From Bacteroidota bacterium (lineage in GTDB: Bacteria; Bacteroidota; Ignavibacteria; UBA10030): a DNA stretch of 64,000 nucleotides. The position numbers and the translations under genes were made by a program. The DNA is taken from contig JBEKAY010000013.1 of the NCBI GenBank assembly GCA_050015675.1, positions 2,734-66,733 on the forward strand, given 5' to 3'. The stretch's first letter is position 1. Every line of letters begins with the position of its first letter. Below the pieces are notes generated by a model that was not told the origin of the DNA, did no database searches, and was given only the letters and a program-made list of their open reading frames with translations. Shown here one piece after another: positions 330 to 44,092 of the stretch.

Positions 330-514
330 ACTGATCCTTTATTTTTTCTGATTTGATACTTCCTCTGCTGCCTTCTTCTTCATATCCGCAAGCTTCTTTT
401 CAAGAGCCGGAGGCCTGAAAATGTCACAGGTAGCGTGCAAATGTTCATCTCGCAAAGCGAGATGACTCTAGCTACGCAGATACCAACCGGAAATAATTTA
501 GCACCACCTGCGTC

Positions 515-1040: not shown

Positions 1041-3968
1041 TTAAGAAACAAATCTATACATCGAATGCCGTATAATATTTTGCACCAATAAATCAAATAT
1101 CCCACCGGCTGCTTTATATTGCATCTCCAGAGTTTTTCGTATCAGCCCTTTTTTTCTATAAAGGTCTATGATCTTTTTGCGTAATTGTGGCGCAACCGTT
1201 TGTTTAAGAAAATCTTGGTTTGTAGAATTGGCACCAATGAGATTTTGTAAGTCTTGGTCTTTCATTGTCTCATCATAGACTTGTTTGATAACGACCACAT
1301 CGTTTTCTTCTATTGTAAAGGTCTTCCTTATTGCTTCTAACACATCTTCAATCGTTGCTCGTGGCGGTGGTGCTCCCGTCCCATGTCCTGTACTTTGCGG
1401 TTCACTGACTCTATTCGGATTTTCTTTCTCGCCAATATATTTTATGGCTGCTTTGCTTACAATCACACTCTCAAGCGATTTTTTAAGACTGCTTTCTGAT
1501 CCGATCTTTATTAATTTCCCGTAAATCAGATCGGCAAATATTGCGAATCTGCTTAACGTATCATTGAACTCAACAAATTGGCAATAGAAATTGTATCGGT
1601 GAACATATTTTATCAACAAATTAACGAAAGTTGATCGTTCTTCTTTACCTTGAATAATACTTTCAAAATGCAGCCGATATTGCAAAGCGAGTGTTGCAAA
1701 TGCTGCATCATCACCTTCTTTTGCAGTATTGAGATATTTCTCTATTTGCTCTGTGTTAAATAAATTATATTCCTGTATCTCATCGTAAAGTTTTTGCATT
1801 TCCGATGGATCTGGCTCTGTTTCTCTTATTTTGATACCAGTGCGATATTTATTGAATGCTTTAAATATTTCTTTGCTATTATCTGTAAAATCGATAACGA
1901 CGGTTGCGTTCTTCCCTTCGTAATTTCTATTGAGGCGTGAGATGGTTTGAACTGCATTAACACCTTTTACATACTTATCTAAATACATTGCGCAAAGTAA
2001 TGGTTCATCAAATCCTTGTGTAAATTTATTTGCCACAATAAGTATTCGGTATTCATCTTTTTCGAAGAATGTCTCTATAGGCATCTCTTCCGTTATTTCC
2101 AGATTGTTGACCTTTGCTTCATCCAATGGTTCTTTGCTCACTTTTTCGATGAATGGCGCAAATGCAAAAAGCACTTTATAAGGAAGGTTTTGTTTCTCTA
2201 ATATCAACCTGATCGCCAGATAATAGTTGTATCCAGCCTGCCGGGAGGATGCAACAACCATTGCTTTCGATTTTCCTTCTAACAGCGGGCGTATCTCTTT
2301 CTCAAAATGGTTGGTGATTACCTGAGATTTATAATTGATAACATCGGTATCTTCAAATGCTATATCGCGCAAAAGTTTTTTAATAAGTCCTGCCGGATAC
2401 ATCCGTTCATCCGGTTTGATCCAAGCTTTATCTAAATGGTATAACGTTTTATATGATATAACATTTTCTGCAACATCTAAGATATAGCTCTCTTTAATTG
2501 CTTCGTCTTCAGTATAAACATCGAATGGTTTCCCGAACAACGCAATGGTCTTTTCTATCGGTGTGGCAGTAAAGGCGATATACACCTGACGGCGTATATC
2601 TAATTTCCGAAAAGCCTCTTCAACATCTTCTTCTATCGTTTCTATTTCACTGTTTTCCGTTTCTTCAGCCTGTGTTGCAAATGTTAAGCGTACGTTTTTC
2701 CCCATTTTACCGCTTTGCGAACGGTGCGCCTCATCGATAATAAATGCAACATGCAAATCCTTTAGACTTTCATCTTCGGATATTTGTTTTTGCACATAAT
2801 TGAATTTTTGTATGGTCGTAACAATGATATTAGTGCGTTTATGCAGGTGTTCAGCAACTTCTTCTGCCTTATCGGTATAAATAATCCTTTTCTGTAAATG
2901 AACAAATTTTTCCAAATCATTCTTTACATTTGTATCCAAACTTTTACGATCGGTAAGTATAACGACAACATCCAGAACCTTTTGATTCGTCGTTCCCTTG
3001 TTTAAGCTGTCCAAACGTTCTGCCAACCAGCTTATCGTTAGTGTTTTACCGGAACCAGGTGAGTGATGGACAAGATACTTCTTGCCGAGCATGTCTTCCG
3101 TTTCTGCATACTTCAATAAATCCGCTGTAATATTTCTTGTACTGCGCAATTGATGGAAGCGAGGCAGAATTGTATATGCAGGCCGTTGGCTTTCCATATC
3201 TGCCGGAACATACAGTAAAAAGTATTCGATAAAATCGCTGATGTATTCCGGAGAGAATAATTGTCCGTATAAATGCCAGACAGGATATTCTCCATGTGGT
3301 ATTTCAGGATTCTCTTTATTTGTCAATCCGGTATTCAAAGGATGAAAATACTCCTCATCCGTTGGATTCGTAGCCGCCCAGACCTCATCCGTATCGGCTG
3401 CAAAGTAGGCGAAGGGCAGAGTAAATATTCGTGAGAGTGTATGCCTTCGTTCGAGAAATTGATCGATTGCATCGGCATATGTGCAGGCTTCTCCCGTTGC
3501 TCCGTGATGCTTCAACTCTGCGGCAATTATAGGTAACCCATTAAGGTATAACACAAGGTCAATTGCTTCACTTGTATCCTGTGTAAAATAGAATTCCTTT
3601 TTATACGCAAAGATGTTTGCTTTATAGCTTTTTAATTGTTCCGCACTGTTTTCGTTTCTTGGTTTCGGGGTATAGAGATATATTTTTTCATCTTTGAGAG
3701 CAATGCCGTTGCGGATAACTAGCCATAATGGATATACACGCAGCTCATCTTTTATAGCTTTTACAATCTGCCTCCCCGTATCGCTGCCAAAGTATTCATC
3801 CCGTAATCGGTTCCATGTTTCCTTTTGAGTTGTCTGTATAAACTCGAAGAGATGGGATTCGACAAAGAAGCATTCTGTATCGGTTATCGCCTCTGCTGAT
3901 AAAACCCGATACTTGAAGTGTTCTTGCAGGTATTTGCAAATATGATTATGGAGTTCTTCTTCGTTCAT
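1041..3968 (-). CDS. hsdR: type I restriction enzyme R subunit (HsdR), SF2 helicase/endonuclease
   Basis: 975 aa; Walker A HSPGSGKT; DEAH-type box IIDEAHRSQ; helicase motifs in the C-terminal half; sits in an hsdM-hsdS-hsdR array. Confidence 0.9.
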   Translation of the reverse strand: MNEEELHNHICKYLQEHFKYRVLSAEAITDTECFFVESHLFEFIQTTQKETWNRLRDEYFGSDTGRQIVKAIKDELRVYPLWLVIRNGIALKDEKIYLYTPKPRNENSAEQLKSYKANIFAYKKEFYFTQDTSEAIDLVLYLNGLPIIAAELKHHGATGEACTYADAIDQFLERRHTLSRIFTLPFAYFAADTDEVWAATNPTDEEYFHPLNTGLTNKENPEIPHGEYPVWHLYGQLFSPEYISDFIEYFLLYVPADMESQRPAYTILPRFHQLRSTRNITADLLKYAETEDMLGKKYLVHHSPGSGKTLTISWLAERLDSLNKGTTNQKVLDVVVILTDRKSLDTNVKNDLEKFVHLQKRIIYTDKAEEVAEHLHKRTNIIVTTIQKFNYVQKQISEDESLKDLHVAFIIDEAHRSQSGKMGKNVRLTFATQAEETENSEIETIEEDVEEAFRKLDIRRQVYIAFTATPIEKTIALFGKPFDVYTEDEAIKESYILDVAENVISYKTLYHLDKAWIKPDERMYPAGLIKKLLRDIAFEDTDVINYKSQVITNHFEKEIRPLLEGKSKAMVVASSRQAGYNYYLAIRLILEKQNLPYKVLFAFAPFIEKVSKEPLDEAKVNNLEITEEMPIETFFEKDEYRILIVANKFTQGFDEPLLCAMYLDKYVKGVNAVQTISRLNRNYEGKNATVVIDFTDNSKEIFKAFNKYRTGIKIRETEPDPSEMQKLYDEIQEYNLFNTEQIEKYLNTAKEGDDAAFATLALQYRLHFESIIQGKEERSTFVNLLIKYVHRYNFYCQFVEFNDTLSRFAIFADLIYGKLIKIGSESSLKKSLESVIVSKAAIKYIGEKENPNRVSEPQSTGHGTGAPPPRATIEDVLEAIRKTFTIEENDVVVIKQVYDETMKDQDLQNLIGANSTNQDFLKQTVAPQLRKKIIDLYRKKGLIRKTLEMQYKAAGGIFDLLVQNIIRHSMYRFVS

Positions 3969-3991
3969 ATTTTTCCAGTTTTCAGTTCTTT

Positions 3992-4078
3992 GTCATTGCG
4001 AGTGACTGAAAGGAGCGAAGCAATCTCATCTTTTCCTCTGTGGTCAGATTGCTTCGTCACTGCGTTCCTCGCAATGAC
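3992..4078. repeat. pair of inverted palindromic repeat units (GTCATTGCGAG-N13-CGAAGCAATC and its reverse complement)
   Basis: Unit 3992-4025 and inverted unit 4047-4078; short direct repeat caatctcat at 4021-4029 and 4101-4109; lies between the GIY-YIG gene end and the hsdR start. Confidence 0.7.
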
Positions 4079-4105
4079 TATGAGACCAAGTCAGGAGAAA
4101 CAATC

Positions 4106-4429
4106 TCATTCTTCTTTCCATTCTAGCTGTTGTATCTCTCCATCATTATACAAATCGTTCCACTCTGGATTTACACCATTTACCAAGTCGAGCTTCTTTT
4201 GTCGTGAACCCGCTTTAATTTGTTTCTCGCGCGCAATCGAATCGTACGCAGTTCCAAATATTTCGTAATACACAAGCTTGGTAATATTATACCGCTTTGT
4301 AAATCCTTTCACGCGTTTTTCCTTATGCTCATAGACTCTTCGAATAAGATCGTTTGTCATACCAGTATAAAGAACCGTATTGTTCTTATTAGTCATGATG
4401 TAAACAAAATACTGGCGTTCTTCGTACAT
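4106..4429 (-). CDS. GIY-YIG (URI-domain) small nuclease, COG2827-like
   Basis: 107 aa; YFVYIMTNKNNTVLYTGMTNDLIRRVYEH matches the GIY-x10-YTG...R..EH core of the small GIY-YIG family. Confidence 0.85.
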   Translation of the reverse strand: MYEERQYFVYIMTNKNNTVLYTGMTNDLIRRVYEHKEKRVKGFTKRYNITKLVYYEIFGTAYDSIAREKQIKAGSRQKKLDLVNGVNPEWNDLYNDGEIQQLEWKEE

Positions 4430-4439
4430 AGGTTATAGT

Positions 4440-4570
4440 GTCATTGCAACGAATAAAAGAGCATGTCTATCTTTCTCTTTATCCTTAGTTTTCAGATTGC
4501 TTCGTCGCTGTGCTCCTCGCAATGACTGGAGCTTATCGTCATTGCGAGCGCCGAAGGTGCGTGGCAATCC
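4440..4570. repeat. cluster of the same palindromic repeat family (degenerate half-unit, inverted unit 4495-4526, forward unit 4538-4570)
   Basis: GATTGCTTCG-N11-CTCGCAATGAC followed by GTCATTGCGAG-N15-GCAATCC; between the hsdS stop (4581) and the GIY-YIG start (4429). Confidence 0.65.
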
Positions 4571-4580
4571 TTCCCTTTCG

Positions 4581-5828
4581 TTATTCTATCACTTTTCTTT
4601 TTCCTGTTACACATTCATGGATCAAGCTTTTTCGATATTGCTGCAATTTTTCGATTTGTCTTTCAATTATACTTTTTTCGTTTTGGACATTCGCGCAAAA
4701 TTGCTCTAAGTAGTTGGCGATCTCTTTTTGCTCTCTCTTATCTGGGAAAGCGATATAAAAATATGCTATTTGTCTTGTCCAATCTACACGTGGCATCTTT
4801 GCACCATATGCAACCGCAGTGCATATTTCAATAAATTTGGGTGACCCTATAAAGTATATAAAAAATGTACTCTCAATTTTTTGACAATTAAAGGCTATAA
4901 TTTCTCCAGTGCATTTACCATCTCTATCGGCAAGCCAATATTTTGCAAGATAAGGCCTTAGCTTTCCGAACAACACATCGTTCTTCCTAAAAATTGTCAC
5001 ATCACTTGAAACCTCTAGAGTATCTCTAAAACCTAATATTTTTCCAGTTCCTTGTTCTATGTCTTCAAGTTCTAGATAGTCTTTTTCATCAGATTTGTTT
5101 GTTGTCTTTTCTGTCCTTAGCTCAACAACATCCTTAATTCTCTCAACCTTCCAATGTTCCGGTATTTCTCCTATCCATTCAATTCCGCTCTCTTTGAGCT
5201 TTACATTTTTATCAAGACCTTTTGTTACGACTTTGTGTATTTCTGCCTTTTTGTATTGTTCTAATTTTTCCAACTGATGCTGCTTTACAGCAATAACCTT
5301 ATCAATGTCTTCCGTAGTTTTATCCAAATATTCAGCGATTGCTTTTTGTTCTGTCCTCGTAGGATAAGCAAGCTTTGTATCTTTTATGTCAACAATGTTG
5401 ATAGCAAAAAAAGTTGTACCGGTAGCTATGCTTTTATAATAGTCCTTTAATCCTAACAAACAATAATAGAGGAATTTAATTTCTGACTTTATCGAATGAA
5501 TCGCACACAATCCTCTACCAATAACATAAATTTGATCGGCGAAATTTAATTCGCCAATACTGGCCCTTACAGACAACAATAGATCGTTTGGTTTTGCTTC
5601 CTTTGTAATTTCAATTGTCCAATATTTATTTTCGGGGATAATTGAACCAAATTCTGTGTTTCCTTGAAGAAATGGAATACCTTTTTCTTCTTCAAAGACA
5701 TTATGCCCTGATGGAGATTGTCCCATAACAATTTCATCCATCATTTTAATTCTTTCAACTCGCCACTCAGAGGGAATATTACCAAGCCAATCAATCTGAG
5801 AAGATTTATATGCACTATACCTTTGCAT
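4581..5828 (-). CDS. hsdS: type I restriction-modification specificity subunit (HsdS) with two target-recognition domains
   Basis: 415 aa; internal duplication (WLGNIPSEWRVERIK / WIGEIPEHWKVERIK) marks two TRDs; conserved central and C-terminal coiled regions; overlaps hsdM by 14 nt. Confidence 0.85.
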   Translation of the reverse strand: MQRYSAYKSSQIDWLGNIPSEWRVERIKMMDEIVMGQSPSGHNVFEEEKGIPFLQGNTEFGSIIPENKYWTIEITKEAKPNDLLLSVRASIGELNFADQIYVIGRGLCAIHSIKSEIKFLYYCLLGLKDYYKSIATGTTFFAINIVDIKDTKLAYPTRTEQKAIAEYLDKTTEDIDKVIAVKQHQLEKLEQYKKAEIHKVVTKGLDKNVKLKESGIEWIGEIPEHWKVERIKDVVELRTEKTTNKSDEKDYLELEDIEQGTGKILGFRDTLEVSSDVTIFRKNDVLFGKLRPYLAKYWLADRDGKCTGEIIAFNCQKIESTFFIYFIGSPKFIEICTAVAYGAKMPRVDWTRQIAYFYIAFPDKREQKEIANYLEQFCANVQNEKSIIERQIEKLQQYRKSLIHECVTGKRKVIE

Positions 5829-7896
5829 TATTTTCCTCTAATTGTCTTAGTATTGCTTCTGCTTCTTTTTCTAAATCCCAAAATTCTTTTAGAACATCTT
5901 CTGCCTTGAGTGGTTCTTCATATTGGAAGAAATATTTGTTGGGCAATATTTCATACCCGAGCTGTGGTGTATTGGAAATACTGATAATTGGTTTATCTAT
6001 TTCCCTCTCAACAAACGTTTTAATATCCTCATTGAATGGTATATACTCAAAATCGATAATATACTGCCTATGTGTGAACAGCACCGTTGTTTTCACTTCG
6101 TAAGTGTTTTGCCACCATTTGAAGATTTCGCTTATCTTGAGTTCTTTCGTTTGTTCTGGGAATTTGTTTTTCAATTGTTCTGCAAAGACATCGACAAATT
6201 GTTTTTTCGATGTCAGCGGGAATTCAAATGATATTTCTTTTGCCGTTTCTGTGATAGATGTATTGATGGAAACATGAAAGGTCGCATCGCCGCCGAAAAA
6301 CGCCACCTTTTCATTCACGTTTTTGTTATTTACTTTCGTCGGGAACGGTTCCTTAATCCATGCGGGTGTATCGTTTTCATCGGTTTGCCAGAACACCACT
6401 TCTACCTTATGGAATGCGAAATCATGATAATCGAATATTTTACAGAAATCATTTTCCTGCCATTGATCGTATTGTTCTTCAATCCATTTACGGTGTATTT
6501 TCTCCAAGCGGTGCCGCTTCTGTCCCATGCTTTTCGGTTCATCACTAAACTGCTTACGTGCATTGATTATGAGAACTTTCTGTTTCTTCTTTTCTGGTTT
6601 TGTGTTACTCAGAATCCAGATGTACGTAAAAATGCCCGTATTATAAAACAACTGATCTGGCAACATCACAATACAATCCAGCAAATCATTTTCCAAGATA
6701 TGCCTACGTATTTCGCTTTCCCCGCTTTCTGCATCACCGTTGCTTAACGGAGAACCATTAAAGATGATTGCTATTTTGCTTGCGCCTTCTTTTGGCGTTT
6801 TCATTTTTTGAATCATTGTCATCAAAAAGAGCAAGGCACCATCTTTAATTGTCGGGAAATGTCCTTTGTATCGTGCGTATGAAAGCTTTTTTACTCGTGC
6901 CGCATACTCGCTCCAGTTCACGCCAAACGGCGGGTTACTGAGCATATAATCGAATTTCTTTTTGTCATGGTAATCGCCCCGTTCTTTATATCCTTCTTCA
7001 TCAGGCACTAATGAATTGCCATGCGTAATTCGATTCGCTTCTTCTGCTTTCATCATCATATCTGCTTTACAAATGGCGTAATTCTTGGATTGGCGCTCCT
7101 GTCCGTACAATTCAACAACCGTTTGAATCAGATCCTTTTCTTTATCACTTTTCGCATTCTCCAAAATATGTTCCTTTGCGACGGAAAGCATACCTCCTGT
7201 TCCACAGGCAGGGTCATAAATACTGATAGCTTTGTTTTTGTTCTTCGGGGAAAGTTGAATGTCTAATAATTCTACCATCAACCGTATAACTTCCCGTGGA
7301 GTAAAATGTTCTCCGGCTTCTTCTCCGCTTTGCTCAGAAAACTTCCTCAGGAGTTCTTCATAGACATACCCCATTTCGAGATTGGATAAATCTTTCGGCC
7401 CCAACGGTTCAGTTGAATACTGGCGGAGAATAGATTCAAGAACATCATTTTTCTCCATCGTTTTAATCGTGGAGGTAAATTCAAATTTCTCAAACATCTC
7501 TTCAATATTCGGAGAAAAGCCGTTAATGTAATCACGGAAGTTCTTTTCTATGCGTTTTGCATTGTCATTAACAATCTTCAAAAGTGTCCACTTCGTTTTA
7601 TTCCAAAAAGGAAATTCATCGCATTCGGTTTCCTTGATAAGCTTTTGTAATTCTGCTGTCTTTTTCTTCTTGGTTTTCGGTTTGTCTTTCTCTGTTATCC
7701 GATATTCGGGATACCCTTGTAAAAGTGCCTCTTCTGTCTCTTTGCGTTTATCTTCCAGAACACATTCAATCCGGCGGAGAAGAATAACAGGTAAAATAAC
7801 ATCCTGATATTCGTAAGCCTTAAACTTACCTCTCAGTTTAATGGCCGATTTCCAGATTTCGTCTGCTTTATTGTTTAGTTGTTCATTTGAAATCAT
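5815..7896 (-). CDS. hsdM: type I restriction-modification N6-adenine DNA methyltransferase subunit (HsdM)
   Basis: 693 aa; HsdM N-terminal domain; motif I DPACGTGGML; motif IV LSNPPFG. Confidence 0.9.
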   Translation of the reverse strand: MISNEQLNNKADEIWKSAIKLRGKFKAYEYQDVILPVILLRRIECVLEDKRKETEEALLQGYPEYRITEKDKPKTKKKKTAELQKLIKETECDEFPFWNKTKWTLLKIVNDNAKRIEKNFRDYINGFSPNIEEMFEKFEFTSTIKTMEKNDVLESILRQYSTEPLGPKDLSNLEMGYVYEELLRKFSEQSGEEAGEHFTPREVIRLMVELLDIQLSPKNKNKAISIYDPACGTGGMLSVAKEHILENAKSDKEKDLIQTVVELYGQERQSKNYAICKADMMMKAEEANRITHGNSLVPDEEGYKERGDYHDKKKFDYMLSNPPFGVNWSEYAARVKKLSYARYKGHFPTIKDGALLFLMTMIQKMKTPKEGASKIAIIFNGSPLSNGDAESGESEIRRHILENDLLDCIVMLPDQLFYNTGIFTYIWILSNTKPEKKKQKVLIINARKQFSDEPKSMGQKRHRLEKIHRKWIEEQYDQWQENDFCKIFDYHDFAFHKVEVVFWQTDENDTPAWIKEPFPTKVNNKNVNEKVAFFGGDATFHVSINTSITETAKEISFEFPLTSKKQFVDVFAEQLKNKFPEQTKELKISEIFKWWQNTYEVKTTVLFTHRQYIIDFEYIPFNEDIKTFVEREIDKPIISISNTPQLGYEILPNKYFFQYEEPLKAEDVLKEFWDLEKEAEAILRQLEENNAKV

Positions 7897-11109: not shown

Positions 11110-12565
11110 TGTTCTCATGGCCCATTCCTTTTTCATGCATTTCGATCCAAAGCAACTGCGAGCAATGATGCCGTACCCGCCACTGGGAACATTGTACGCC
11201 GCGAGCTTTTTGGAAAAAGACGGAATATCGGTGCGCCTTTTCGATGCCATGCTTGCACGGAGTGAAAACGATATCCGTGCGTCTCTTGAAGAGCATCATC
11301 CCTCGATCGTCGCTTTTTATGACGATGACTTCAACTACCTAAATAAAATGTGCTTAAGCAGAATGCGCGAAGCGACTTTTGCGATGACTGCAATAGCAAA
11401 GGAATATGGAGCATTTGTCATTATTCATAGTTCGGATGCAGCAGACCATGCAAAAGCGTATCTGGACCATAGCGCCAATGTGATTGTCATCGGCGAAGGG
11501 GAACAAACGCTTCGGGAACTGTGTCGAGCAGTTCTTCGGGAACACCGTTTCGATTTCTCTGCCATTGGTGGAGTGGCCTTCAAGAAGAACGGAACGACGA
11601 CTCATTCTCCGCGACGAATCGTGTTAAAGAATCTAGATGATCTGCCGTTTCCTGCATGGCATTTTGTAGATGTTGAAAAGTACAAAGCTTCATGGAAACG
11701 CAAGCATGGATTCTATTCGGTCAACATGGTCACGACTCGCGGATGTCCGTTCCATTGTAACTGGTGCGCAAAACCGATTTATGGCCAGGTCTATAATTCA
11801 CGATCACCGCAGAATGTTGTCGAAGAAATAAAACTCCTCCAACAGACAATCCGACCGGATCATATCTGGTTTGCGGACGATATTTTCGGCTTGAAGCCCG
11901 GATGGATTCAAGCGTTTGCCTCGCTCATCGAAAAAGAGAACATTTCAATTCGGTATAAAATTCAGTCGCGTGTCGACTTGTTGCTGGAACCCGACACCGT
12001 TCGAGCATTGGCGAGATCAGGCTGCAGCGAAGTGTGGGTTGGCGCCGAATCTGGTTCGCAAAAAATATTAGATGCTATGGATAAGGGAACGAAAGTCGCC
12101 CAAATTTATGAAGCGCGCAGATTGTTGCAACAATATGGCATCAAGACTGCCTTCTTTCTGCAATTCGGTTATCTCGGAGAGCAGCAGGAGGACATCAATG
12201 CCACAATTCGTATGGTGAAAGATCTTATGCCCGATGATATCGGCATTTCCGTTTCCTATCCATTGCCGGGCACAAAGTTCTTTGAGAAAGTAAAAATGGA
12301 TATGAAAGAAAAACAAAATTGGATAGACTCCGACGACCTTGCGATGATGTATCGAAGCACTTTTTCTCCGGTGTACTACAAGCAACTGCATCGTTATGTG
12401 CATAAAGTATTCCGCCTACGCAAGGGATTATTGATGTTGTGGCACCTCATCTCCCGCAAAGCAACATTCGGATGGATTGAGATACGTCAAGTGATATTGA
12501 TTTTTTATTATGGACCGGGTAGCATTATTGATCGATGTAAACTACTCTATTACCAAACAGCATGA
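11102..12565 (+). CDS. B12-binding (class B) radical SAM enzyme
   Basis: N-terminal cobalamin-binding-like domain, then CxxxCxxC (GCPFHCNWC) radical SAM core; overlaps the upstream gene by 8 nt. Confidence 0.8.
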   Translation: MIDVLMAHSFFMHFDPKQLRAMMPYPPLGTLYAASFLEKDGISVRLFDAMLARSENDIRASLEEHHPSIVAFYDDDFNYLNKMCLSRMREATFAMTAIAKEYGAFVIIHSSDAADHAKAYLDHSANVIVIGEGEQTLRELCRAVLREHRFDFSAIGGVAFKKNGTTTHSPRRIVLKNLDDLPFPAWHFVDVEKYKASWKRKHGFYSVNMVTTRGCPFHCNWCAKPIYGQVYNSRSPQNVVEEIKLLQQTIRPDHIWFADDIFGLKPGWIQAFASLIEKENISIRYKIQSRVDLLLEPDTVRALARSGCSEVWVGAESGSQKILDAMDKGTKVAQIYEARRLLQQYGIKTAFFLQFGYLGEQQEDINATIRMVKDLMPDDIGISVSYPLPGTKFFEKVKMDMKEKQNWIDSDDLAMMYRSTFSPVYYKQLHRYVHKVFRLRKGLLMLWHLISRKATFGWIEIRQVILIFYYGPGSIIDRCKLLYYQTA

Positions 12566-32111: not shown

Positions 32112-32195
32112 GCCCGGATGGCGAAATTGGCAGACGCGCTAGCTTCAGGAGCTAGTGATCGCAAGGTCATGGGGGTTCAAGTCCCCCTTCGGGCA
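32112..32195 (+). tRNA. tRNA-Leu (anticodon CAG)
   Basis: Cloverleaf readable by eye: acceptor GCCCGGA/TTCGGGC, long variable arm, T-arm GGGGG-TTCAAGT-CCCCC, anticodon loop TTCAGGA; no encoded CCA. Confidence 0.85.
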
Positions 32196-43645: not shown

Positions 43646-44092
43646 TCAATCGCCACAATAAGGAGGACATAAGAACGCCCCCTCCAGAGCCATTGCAGTC
43701 ATAGTCTTTCCTTGGCCATTCACTGCGACGAGGACTATCGTTGGTGTACCATCAGTATTCTGTGCAAAATAATATTTTAAACCAATAACTCCTGGCTGGT
43801 TAATAAGTGTTTGAATAGCACTGACAGCAAAAGTACCACCCGAAGTTCCTTTTGTAACTCTGGCGGCAGCGTTAGCGGTGAGATTAGTTTTGAGATTACC
43901 TTTTTGATTCGCAATTAAAAAGGTTGCCGTCCCCCAATCAATTTGATGGTTGGCAGTGCTTAAAGCATTAACCAAAGCCTGTCCTTGATCCTGTGGTTCA
44001 GGAGCATTTTTTCCCGGACCATTGTACGCCCAAAGCAATCCAAAACAGAGTACGACAAGAATGCTGAGGACGAGTATACCTTTGATTTTCAT
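43646..44092 (-). CDS. secreted hypothetical protein
   Basis: Signal-peptide-like N-terminus (MKIKGILVLSILVVLCFGLLWA); no known domain recognised. Confidence 0.4.
   Translation of the reverse strand: MKIKGILVLSILVVLCFGLLWAYNGPGKNAPEPQDQGQALVNALSTANHQIDWGTATFLIANQKGNLKTNLTANAAARVTKGTSGGTFAVSAIQTLINQPGVIGLKYYFAQNTDGTPTIVLVAVNGQGKTMTAMALEGAFLCPPYCGD

Follow-up and report, generated by a model that had tools for sequence, protein, structure and literature searches.

Contig JBEKAY010000013.1 of a Bacteroidota bacterium (GenBank assembly GCA_050015675.1) carries a type I restriction-modification (R-M) operon in which a small nuclease gene, ssn, lies between hsdS and hsdR and is surrounded by hairpin-forming repeats. 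The whole stretch analysed, 64,000 nucleotides long, is referred to as the window, and coordinates are those of the window unless a numbered related locus (L003 and so on) is named. Open reading frames (ORFs) of the window were listed with their translations, and domains of each operon ORF were called with Pfam. All four genes are co-oriented on the minus strand. hsdM (5815..7896) encodes the 693-aa methyltransferase subunit (N6_Mtase, E 1e-61, and HsdM_N), and hsdS (4581..5828) a 415-aa specificity subunit with a Methylase_S domain and an intact C-terminus (...ECVTGKRKVIE*). ssn (4106..4429) encodes a 107-aa protein with a GIY-YIG domain (E 2e-15, residues 6-79). The full-length hsdR (1041..3968) encodes the restriction subunit of 975 aa (HSDR_N/ResIII/SWI2_SNF2, N-terminus MNEEELHNHIC), and its homologues measure 967-981 aa. 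hsdM and hsdS overlap by 14 nt. An earlier note, made from the sequence alone, had proposed these four genes and this overlap, and both agree with the ORF list and the Pfam calls. The three hsd genes are thus present, co-oriented and full length, as in a type I R-M operon. The 612 nt from the hsdS stop to the hsdR start contain a single small gene plus ~290 nt that are non-coding.

The non-coding DNA around ssn is made up of copies of one repeat unit, GTCATTGCGAG-N11-13-CGAAGCAATC. On the coding strand, the hsdS stop is followed by the CGTC-tagged unit U4 in reverse (GTCATTGCGAGCGCCGAAGGTGCGTGGCAATC, 4538..4569, plus strand), 11 nt, unit U3 forward (GTCATTGCGAGGAGCACAGCGACGAAGCAATC, 4495..4526, minus strand) and 41 nt. 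A truncated reverse unit, U5 (GTCATTGCAACGAA, 4440..4453, plus strand), is a decayed partner of U3 and precedes ssn by 10 nt. Directly after the ssn stop codon lies a decayed half-unit of 9 nt (GATTGTTTC, 4097..4105, minus strand). It is followed by U2 forward (GTCATTGCGAGGAACGCAGTGACGAAGCAATC, 4047..4078, minus strand), a 21-nt loop (4026-4046), U1 in reverse (GTCATTGCGAGTGACTGAAAGGAGCGAAGCAATC, 3992..4025, plus strand), 23 nt and the hsdR ATG. U4 and U3 form a head-to-head pair, whereas U2, the loop and U1 form an 87-nt tail-to-tail doublet (3992-4078). ssn is flanked on both sides by oriented GTC-tagged hairpins, two intact units and a truncated one upstream and two intact units and a 9-nt remnant downstream, which bears out the palindromic repeats that the note had placed on either side of the gene. 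The tags of the window units are TGTC, AGTC, AGTC and CGTC. Where the window has the decayed GATTGTTTC, homologous loci hold an intact GATTGCTTC...CTCGCAATGAC, and in many of them an intact reverse unit begins immediately 3' of the stop codon of the ssn homologue.

The unit occurs nowhere else in the window. The four exact matches to GTCATTGCGAG in the 64 kb all lie within 3992-4548; allowing one mismatch at most gives seven, compared to 1.2 expected, and none of 100 shuffles reached seven. The U2-loop-U1 doublet is predicted to form one long hairpin (dG of the DNA about -22 kcal/mol, z -5.5 to -6.5), and U4 into a basal stem ATTGC/GCAAT with an apical hairpin. Because U3 and its adjacent spacer are an 84% direct copy of U2 and its adjacent loop, ssn is bracketed by two paralogous doublets. 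The direct repeat caatctcat that the note had pointed out does exist (4017-4029 versus 4097-4109, 12/13 identical), with the decayed half-unit as one of its arms. It was rejected as a target-site duplication since it belongs to the repeat family, being the conserved 3' box of the unit. A literal literature search for CATTGCGAG returned primers only. Rfam at gathering thresholds has a single match in the whole window, a tRNA (32112-32195, plus strand), and at E<=10 on 3800-4800 it gave only noise, with no intron and no repeat family. Isolated GTCAT-initiated hairpins with stems of 6-7 bp occur at 446-466 (minus), 11305-11329 (minus) and 43698-43739 (plus); by a rough estimate their number is close to chance, and their sequences are unrelated to the cassette repeats.

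The Ssn family comprises single-domain GIY-YIG proteins (CDD cd10448) and was set up in 2025 on the basis of Neisseria and a handful of further Proteobacteria (Chenal et al. 2025, Nat Commun 16:2388, PMC11893778). Ssn enzymes bind to a repeat that forms a hairpin, and their cut falls 5' of this repeat, in single-stranded DNA (ssDNA) only and on one strand only; double-stranded DNA (dsDNA) and RNA are not cut (PMC11893778). Four enzymes were assayed, three from Neisseria and one from Wolbachia. The Neisseria repeat is called NTS (CGTCATTCCCGCGMAVGCGGGAATCYRG) and its general form the Ssn-related motif (SRM), which lies near 71% of Ssn homologue genes and on both sides in 42% (PMC11893778). The 94-aa SsnA of N. 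meningitidis reduces transformation with DNA that carries NTS, which is described as a mechanism of ssDNA restriction (PMC11893778). The same authors likened NTS-ssnA-NTS, as a hypothesis, to an insertion sequence (IS) and to repetitive extragenic palindromes (REPs) with their REP-associated tyrosine transposases (RAYTs); they left its mobility and the role of the family beyond Neisseria open.

GIY-YIG is the sole Pfam domain of the window protein, whose size fits that of Ssn proteins (~90-110 aa). BLASTP aligns it over 91 aa with the SsnA orthologue of N. gonorrhoeae at 45% identity (E 4e-30). The comparison sequence came from chromosome H4, one of two N. gonorrhoeae chromosomes filed among plasmid records; it contains a single match to the window protein, a 94-aa ORF amid canonical CGTCATTCCC..GGGAATC NTS. 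In 35 aligned sequences, one of them the Neisseria protein, 20 columns are invariant; all are retained in the window protein, and they include G23, T25, R31, H35, Y47, N48, E56, R67, E68 and N87; Y21 is conserved in >90%. The AlphaFold2 model (mean predicted local distance difference test, pLDDT, 89.5) is one compact GIY-YIG domain, and among solved structures it matches UPF0213 BH0048 and the nuclease domain of Slx1 best. A sequence search of the PDB found no solved Ssn structure and only BH0048 (1zg2, E 2e-4). The window protein shares a C-terminal extension of 10-13 aa (DGEIxxLEW) with its closest relatives.

The window unit and NTS have the frame GTCAT...AATC in common. It is highly probable that the locus is a member of the Ssn/SRM group with a repeat variant beyond the published search motif. 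Several points count against this assignment. The published degenerate SRM string, HGTCWYN(0-2)YYVSBRHN(0-5)WNVSBRGN(0-2)RNCYNB, has no match on either strand of the whole window, which places the repeat outside the formally analysed set. The string is a search heuristic rather than a definition, and it fails here because the window variant has a GAG/CGAA interruption and a longer helix. The assayed enzymes fall outside the subclade of the window protein, whose nuclease activity is a prediction, and the ssDNA specificity of this subclade would be an extrapolation from 45% identity.

Units of the ATTGC type number 120, 91 of them distinct, and the 77 distinct units of up to 60 nt were folded. 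The centre of the unit is 3-59 nt long and is usually a hairpin in its own right, of differing sequence (for example GCC-TTAA-GGC, GGCAC-AAA-GTGCC or TCCGCC-TGA-GGCGGA); the mean folding z is -1.9 relative to shuffled centres. Counted from the outside in, a single pairing register is consistent, with one 3'-side A bulged after the 5-bp stem ATTGC/GCAAT. Above this stem follow G·A (57/77), A·G (75/77) and G-C (74/77). Helix positions 5-8 are 76-87% paired, with 4-6 pair types, whereas shifted registers are only 24-47% paired. The two strands read C-GA-G and C-GA-A, and in DNA this context favours the sheared form of tandem G·A pairs. In a flank profile of 103 units, 62 have T and 29 have C at position -1 (91/103), 81 have T at +1 and 80 have C at +2, giving a (T/C)GTC tag and a TC tail. 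The pair counts and the covariation in one register argue that the unit is, as far as sequence can tell, a folded single strand built of four parts, namely a YGTC tag left unpaired, a basal stem of 5 bp, a tandem G·A/A·G that is conserved and has one bulged A, and an apical helix whose sequence and length are free. Substrates for a new cleavage specificity can be designed with the help of this description.

With one genome scanned per species, 80 loci with homologues of the window protein were obtained; its relatives number thousands overall. The identical protein is recorded on the 80-kb JGI metagenome contig Ga0427935_0000503 and on one 1.2-kb ENA contig, which shows the same filled locus. 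Identity is 84% in Ignavibacteriota, 76% in Thermodesulfobacteriota, 74% in a cyanobacterium and in a Cyclobacteriaceae genome, 72% in Chloroflexota and 67-68% in Planctomycetota, and only 55-62% in several other Bacteroidota, a ranking that departs from taxonomy. An ATTGC-type unit lies within ~150 nt of the gene in most loci above ~60% identity. Among homologues of at least ~57% it is found in Ignavibacteriota, Cyanobacteria, Chloroflexota, Planctomycetota, Bacteroidota, Thermodesulfobacteriota and Gemmatimonadales. The simplest arrangement, a forward unit 5' and a reverse unit 3' of the gene, is seen in L024, L025 (Hymenobacter gummosus), L017 and L030, and in L024 the gene lies within perfect 36-nt inverted repeats. 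L032 (Chloroflexus islandicus, period ~139 nt), L080, L046 and L018 have additional gene-less doublets or tandem arrays. The arrays with the ~139-nt period stand directly 3' of ssn, at 5292-6410 in L032 and 5310-5844 in L080, a Chloroflexia metagenome-assembled genome (MAG).

In most of the more distant homologues the basal stem is changed with compensation, to ATTCT/AGAAT, ATCCT/AGGAT, ATTCC/GGAAT or ATGCT/AGCAT, in units of the form GTCATTCTGAG..GAAGAATC, GTCATCCTGAG..GAAGGATC, GTCATTCCGAG..GAGGAATC and GTCATGCTGAG..GAAGCATC. L038 has a near-Neisseria unit, GTCATTCCCGCGAACGCGGGAAGC. Across the 80 loci the stem type follows the protein subfamily. A generic detector (GTC, a 5-nt stem beginning with AT, its complement, then C) finds a hairpin within 300 nt of the gene in 72/80 loci and on both sides in 47/80. 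Hairpin density is 4.3 per kb in this range and 0.18 per kb beyond 600 nt, a ~25-fold difference. The repeats are therefore linked specifically to the gene family and are not generic intergenic elements; ubiquitous repeats unrelated to GIY-YIG genes are what the note had named as undoing its proposal. The SRM variant is widespread, yet the published motif misses it, and SRM counts in Bacteroidota, Ignavibacteriota, Chloroflexota and Cyanobacteria are therefore probably too low at present.

These counts also bear on the idea that the hairpins are ordinary REP-like regulatory elements of the host, such as mRNA stabilisers or terminators, which stand by chance next to an unrelated repair nuclease of the YhbQ/UPF0213 kind. 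The distant likeness to BH0048 and the stable doublet hairpin just 5' of hsdR would fit this idea. We give it almost no credence: the co-occurrence of gene and repeat spans phyla, the remaining 63 kb of the window lack the repeat, there is no predicted intrinsic terminator, and the protein is far closer to SsnA than to UPF0213. The confinement of the repeat to the locus and its presence in 72 of the 80 loci refute a coincidental adjacency.

How the cassette came to lie between hsdS and hsdR was addressed with related operons, found by protein search with HsdR and subsequent context look-ups (L087-L091). The closest HsdR relatives are 62-68% identical; a metagenome scan with the HsdR N-terminus gave only relatives of 29% identity, useless as empty sites. 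L087 and L091 have the order hsdM-hsdS-hsdR without a cassette, and their hsdS and hsdR overlap by 4 nt (ATGA). The junction reads ...aaaagttatATGAcagaagaa in L087 and ...aaaatagcATGAacgaagaa in L091, compared to ...aaaagtgata|gaaTAA...(cassette)...aaaaat|ATGaacgaagaa in the window. The gene ends match across the junction: HsdS ends in ...ECVTGKRKVIE* in the window and ...ECVTGKRKVI* in L087, and HsdR begins with MNEEELHNHIC in the window and MNEEAFHNHIC in L091. The ~0.62 kb at 3969..4586 (minus strand), missing from these closest related operons, therefore sits exactly at the former stop/start overlap with both genes intact, and it contributes the last codon and the stop codon of hsdS. This is a clean comparison of filled and empty sites.

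Other cargo occupies the same place in the remaining operons, RhuM between hsdS and hsdR in L088 and GmrSD at the hsdS/hsdR junction in L089 and L090; in L087-L091 the junction lies at about position 5001 of the locus. None of L087-L091 has an ssn homologue or an ATTGC-type unit, so that these relatives do not show the gene as a stable member of the operon, which was the other finding that the note had named as a refutation. These gene orders make it evident that, in this hsd lineage, the junction serves as a slot for cargo. The note's suggestion that a cassette had landed inside a defence operon finds support here, and the insertion of a foreign cassette at this junction is well supported by the sequence comparison. 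The hsdR and ssn starts resemble each other (TATG-N-ACGAAGAA, 12/13 nt, 3957-3969 versus 4418-4430, p ~0.007), either by coincidence or through microhomology. As a recombination joint this likeness was discarded, because both N-termini are native to their own families.

In place of translational coupling between hsdS and hsdR, the insertion would have left a hairpin-rich spacer of 612 nt. The note had proposed that the cassette may decouple hsdR expression from hsdMS. The premise of this proposal holds, inasmuch as the ancestral ATGA overlap has given way to a spacer with strong hairpins, one of them 23 nt 5' of the hsdR start; the decoupling as such would be one conceivable effect on hsdR expression. 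Since the cassette is co-oriented and no intrinsic terminator is predicted, ssn would be expressed by read-through from hsdMS, and co-transcription of hsdR is still possible. A scan for sigma-70 promoters and terminators, which did not cover promoters of the Bacteroidota type, gave nothing above shuffle expectation. The upstream neighbour of ssn is co-oriented in 69/78 loci (p 4e-4 relative to an assumed baseline of 72%), an excess that fits expression by read-through, and the downstream neighbour in an ordinary 50/75. All three hsd genes are full length, so the R-M system is probably still functional.

Of ~75 contexts, at least five independent ones place an ssn cassette inside a type I R-M operon (binomial p ~1e-3 relative to a generous assumed base rate of 1%). 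The arrangements are M-S-ssn-R in the window, R-x-ORF6N-ssn-M in L003/L006, R-ssn-M...S in L058, M-HepT/MNT-ssn-x-S in L048/L065 and M-DUF2281-ssn...OLD nuclease in L068. Other neighbours of ssn of a defence type are HepT/MNT, an OLD-family nuclease, BrxL, an AbiEii-like AAA_21 protein and ORF6N. R-M systems get no mention in PMC11893778. The candidate meanings are a landing-site preference and a functional partnership; the recurrence could reflect the tolerance of defence loci for insertions or a functional link to the R-M system.

A functional link would make Ssn a recruited accessory defence gene, whose ssDNA 'restriction' complements the dsDNA-targeting type I enzyme. The RhuM and GmrSD genes at the same junction and the R-M recurrence speak for this, as does the effect of SsnA on transformation in N. 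meningitidis (PMC11893778). Such cargo has a precedent, as PrrC lies between hsdS and hsdR in EcoprrI. The ssn gene shares with these cargo genes the slot, the orientation and the intact hsd genes around it, but the cargo in L089 and L090 overlaps with the hsd genes beside it and lacks flanking repeats, whereas the ssn cassette adds ~290 nt of hairpin DNA. We regard a recruited defence function as rather unlikely. Most homologues lie between housekeeping genes such as purA, polA, rnhB, leuS, lpxK and trpA, PADLOC has no defence model that matches the window protein, and the known targets of Ssn are repeats of the cell itself and not foreign DNA. The enrichment in R-M operons is equally expected if defence islands merely tolerate or accumulate insertions.

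Several features suggest that the gene and its SRM doublets arrived at the hsdS/hsdR junction as one horizontally transferred cassette, as its anatomy would indicate. The neighbours of the 80 homologues belong to >100 Pfam families, most of them housekeeping. The homology of the cassette to L003 begins exactly at the GTC tag of U3 and continues through the gene. The 87-nt doublet including its loop recurs without the gene in two Ignavibacteriota MAGs, at 6945-7031 of L005 (84% identical) and 2657-2743 of L003 (77%). Inverted repeats of the kind that end insertion sequences and transposons occur as forward unit, gene and reverse unit in L024, L025, L017 and L030, and as doublets on both sides of the gene in the window. 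By homology to the four tested enzymes, Ssn would bind each SRM only in single-stranded DNA and only on the strand reading GTCAT..., and would nick it a few nt 5' of the tag.

An autonomous mobile element would account for these features. Ssn would then act like a transposase that nicks single-stranded hairpin ends, in the manner of the IS200/IS605 transposase TnpA or of a RAYT on REPs; it would have inserted itself at the hsd junction and would also mobilise the gene-less 87-nt doublets. The inverted architecture [GTCATTGCGAG..AATC]-gene-[GATT..CTCGCAATGAC], the perfect inverted repeats in L024, the precise insertion between intact genes, the >100 genomic contexts, and the gene-less doublets along with the doublet arrays by the gene in L032 and L080 all fit such an element. 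Nicks 5' of the tag on the GTCAT strand would fall just beyond both unit ends, and the analogy to an IS was raised by the authors of PMC11893778 themselves.

A good deal weighs against it. No target-site duplication surrounds the SRM clusters in 44 loci, where p-values are roughly uniform (0.375 for the window) and the top direct-repeat match, in L005, is a further repeat unit. The window holds no second copy of the gene or of the repeats, and no identical multi-copy elements were seen. L002 is the same filled locus with the cassette present. In HsdR, identity to the nearest empty operons reaches only 64-68%, so that the insertion is old or was brought in with a transferred operon; no recent presence/absence polymorphism was seen. 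Position is kept within Mucilaginibacter (L043/L047) and between two Planctomycetota (L013/L015), which suggests long residence rather than frequent jumping. With usually one gene copy per locus and synteny within genera, ssn is nearer to vertically inherited RAYTs than to an active IS. Strand transfer is not an activity known for a bare GIY-YIG nuclease, and the predicted nicks would lie on opposite strands, unlike those of IS200/IS605. The family is almost absent from phages and viral contigs: GenBank phages gave no match, and IMG/VR three weak ones, two of them at contig ends. Autonomous mobility of the cassette is thus conceivable but somewhat doubtful.

We tentatively speculate that SRM-ssn-SRM units and gene-less 87-nt doublets form a distinct class of mobile element, run by a minimal GIY-YIG single-strand nuclease, that crosses phyla and lodges preferentially in type I R-M and similar defence loci. 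If so, the window would show one integration, at an ATGA overlap, with matching empty sites in related operons. Two further observations concern individual loci. In L007 an imperfect direct repeat of ~35 nt, encoding ...RGIESLKVMKV, lies around the ssn-plus-doublet cassette, at ~4915-4953 and ~5472-5509; in no other locus was a long duplication of the flanks seen. L003 has two tandem ssn genes (4262-4573 and 5001-5315) with SRM units between them, and a separate protein with RAMA and GIY-YIG domains is encoded ~2 kb downstream (7029-7760).

A free-standing GIY-YIG homing endonuclease aimed at the hsdS/hsdR junction sequence would likewise insert precisely and leave its flanks intact. The classic fold of the window protein and the likeness of the ssn and hsdR starts (12/13 nt) could be read in this way. 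Like I-TevI, I-BmoI and the T4 Seg enzymes, it combines the catalytic fold with a small, selfish-looking gene between intact host genes. Unlike them, it consists of the ~100-aa catalytic domain only, with no linker and no DNA-binding domain, and it has no intron or phage context and no common target site. In NCBIfam it reaches only a sub-threshold match to the group I intron endonuclease model TIGR01453 (19 bits, cutoff 56). Homologues occupy >100 unrelated sites, and the similar starts are native to their families. We consider a homing endonuclease very improbable; the lone catalytic domain, the lack of an Rfam intron and the multitude of unrelated sites largely refute it.

Compared to known systems, the locus is closest to the published Ssn/SRM loci (PMC11893778), and a cassette of this kind was already published in 2025; the window mainly adds evidence that such cassettes are inserted at new places. 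Shared features are a single-domain GIY-YIG protein of ~100 aa, bracketing of the NTS-ssnA-NTS type, a repeat type that co-varies with the protein subfamily and a wide phyletic spread. The window unit differs in its 5-bp basal stem, tandem G·A and variable apical helix, in place of the continuous 8-9 bp stem of NTS. Its repeats are not amplified (the 64 kb contain four intact ones, one truncated one and one remnant, each of them at the gene), the cassette lies within a type I R-M operon, and the protein carries the C-terminal extension. New relative to PMC11893778 are the variant missed by its motif, the helix covariation above a conserved tandem G·A, and the recurrence in type I R-M operons. 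UPF0213/YhbQ (1zg2) and Slx1 are the best structural matches of the model but only 16-31% identical to the window protein. Slx1 moreover requires Slx4 and a RING domain, and neither protein has been described as repeat-associated.

The units also resemble the CGTC-tagged REPs, which have been catalogued, also in Bacteroidetes and Chlorobi, and include Neisseria dRS3 and Rickettsia RPE-4/6; no dedicated enzyme was found for them (Di Nocera, De Gregorio and Rocco 2013, PMC3733652). Both have an unpaired C/T-GTC tag, a stem starting with AT, a short 3' tail and head-to-head as well as tail-to-tail dimers. The catalogued REPs have stems of 8-9 bp, loops of 4-5 nt and a high copy number (PMC3733652). 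The ATTGC-type unit, by comparison, lacks such a continuous stem and short loop; its helix is interrupted, its centre is 3-59 nt long, its copy number is low, and it flanks a GIY-YIG gene. Dispersed copies, a feature of these REPs, are absent outside the cassette within 64 kb, the only stretch covered.

REPIN-RAYT systems, or REPtrons, are alike in outline, in that a small nuclease gene lies within inverted hairpin repeats and gene-less doublets (here of 87 nt) are dispersed. Their gene is also mostly single-copy and syntenic within genera. Ssn is, however, a GIY-YIG protein and not an HUH/Y1 transposase, and the tag is GTC and not GTAG, so neither REPIN-RAYT hallmark is found. SRM sequence is conserved across phyla, whereas REPs are lineage-specific, and mobilisation of SRMs would be by analogy. 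IS200/IS605 elements have subterminal hairpins recognised as ssDNA, as would apply to Ssn here, and likewise no target duplication is seen. They differ in having a Y1 transposase; the ends of the ssn cassette are inverted copies of one hairpin, with predicted nicks on opposite strands, and there are no multicopy identical elements. The overall picture resembles a single-copy, long-resident REPIN-RAYT system, but with stronger signs of horizontal transfer.

The repeats also account for spurious genes. Plus-strand ORFs at 4497-4709 and 4510-4713, which the note had dismissed as products of the repeat family, are present, and their N-terminal parts translate repeats (LLRRCAPRND...). Other ORFs that translate repeats lie at 4433-4567 (minus) and 3918-4268 (plus), and the peptides of the three at 4433-4567, 4497-4709 and 3918-4268 include SLRGAQRRSNL, LLRRCAPRND and FLAMT. 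Translation of the repeat explains the common spurious 'LRRxAPRND / SLRGAQRRSNL' ORFs, which are likely to be bogus hypothetical proteins wherever the repeat family occurs. The hsd genes (1041-7896) have a G+C content of 34-38%, compared to 42% for the window, and the entire operon may have been horizontally acquired.

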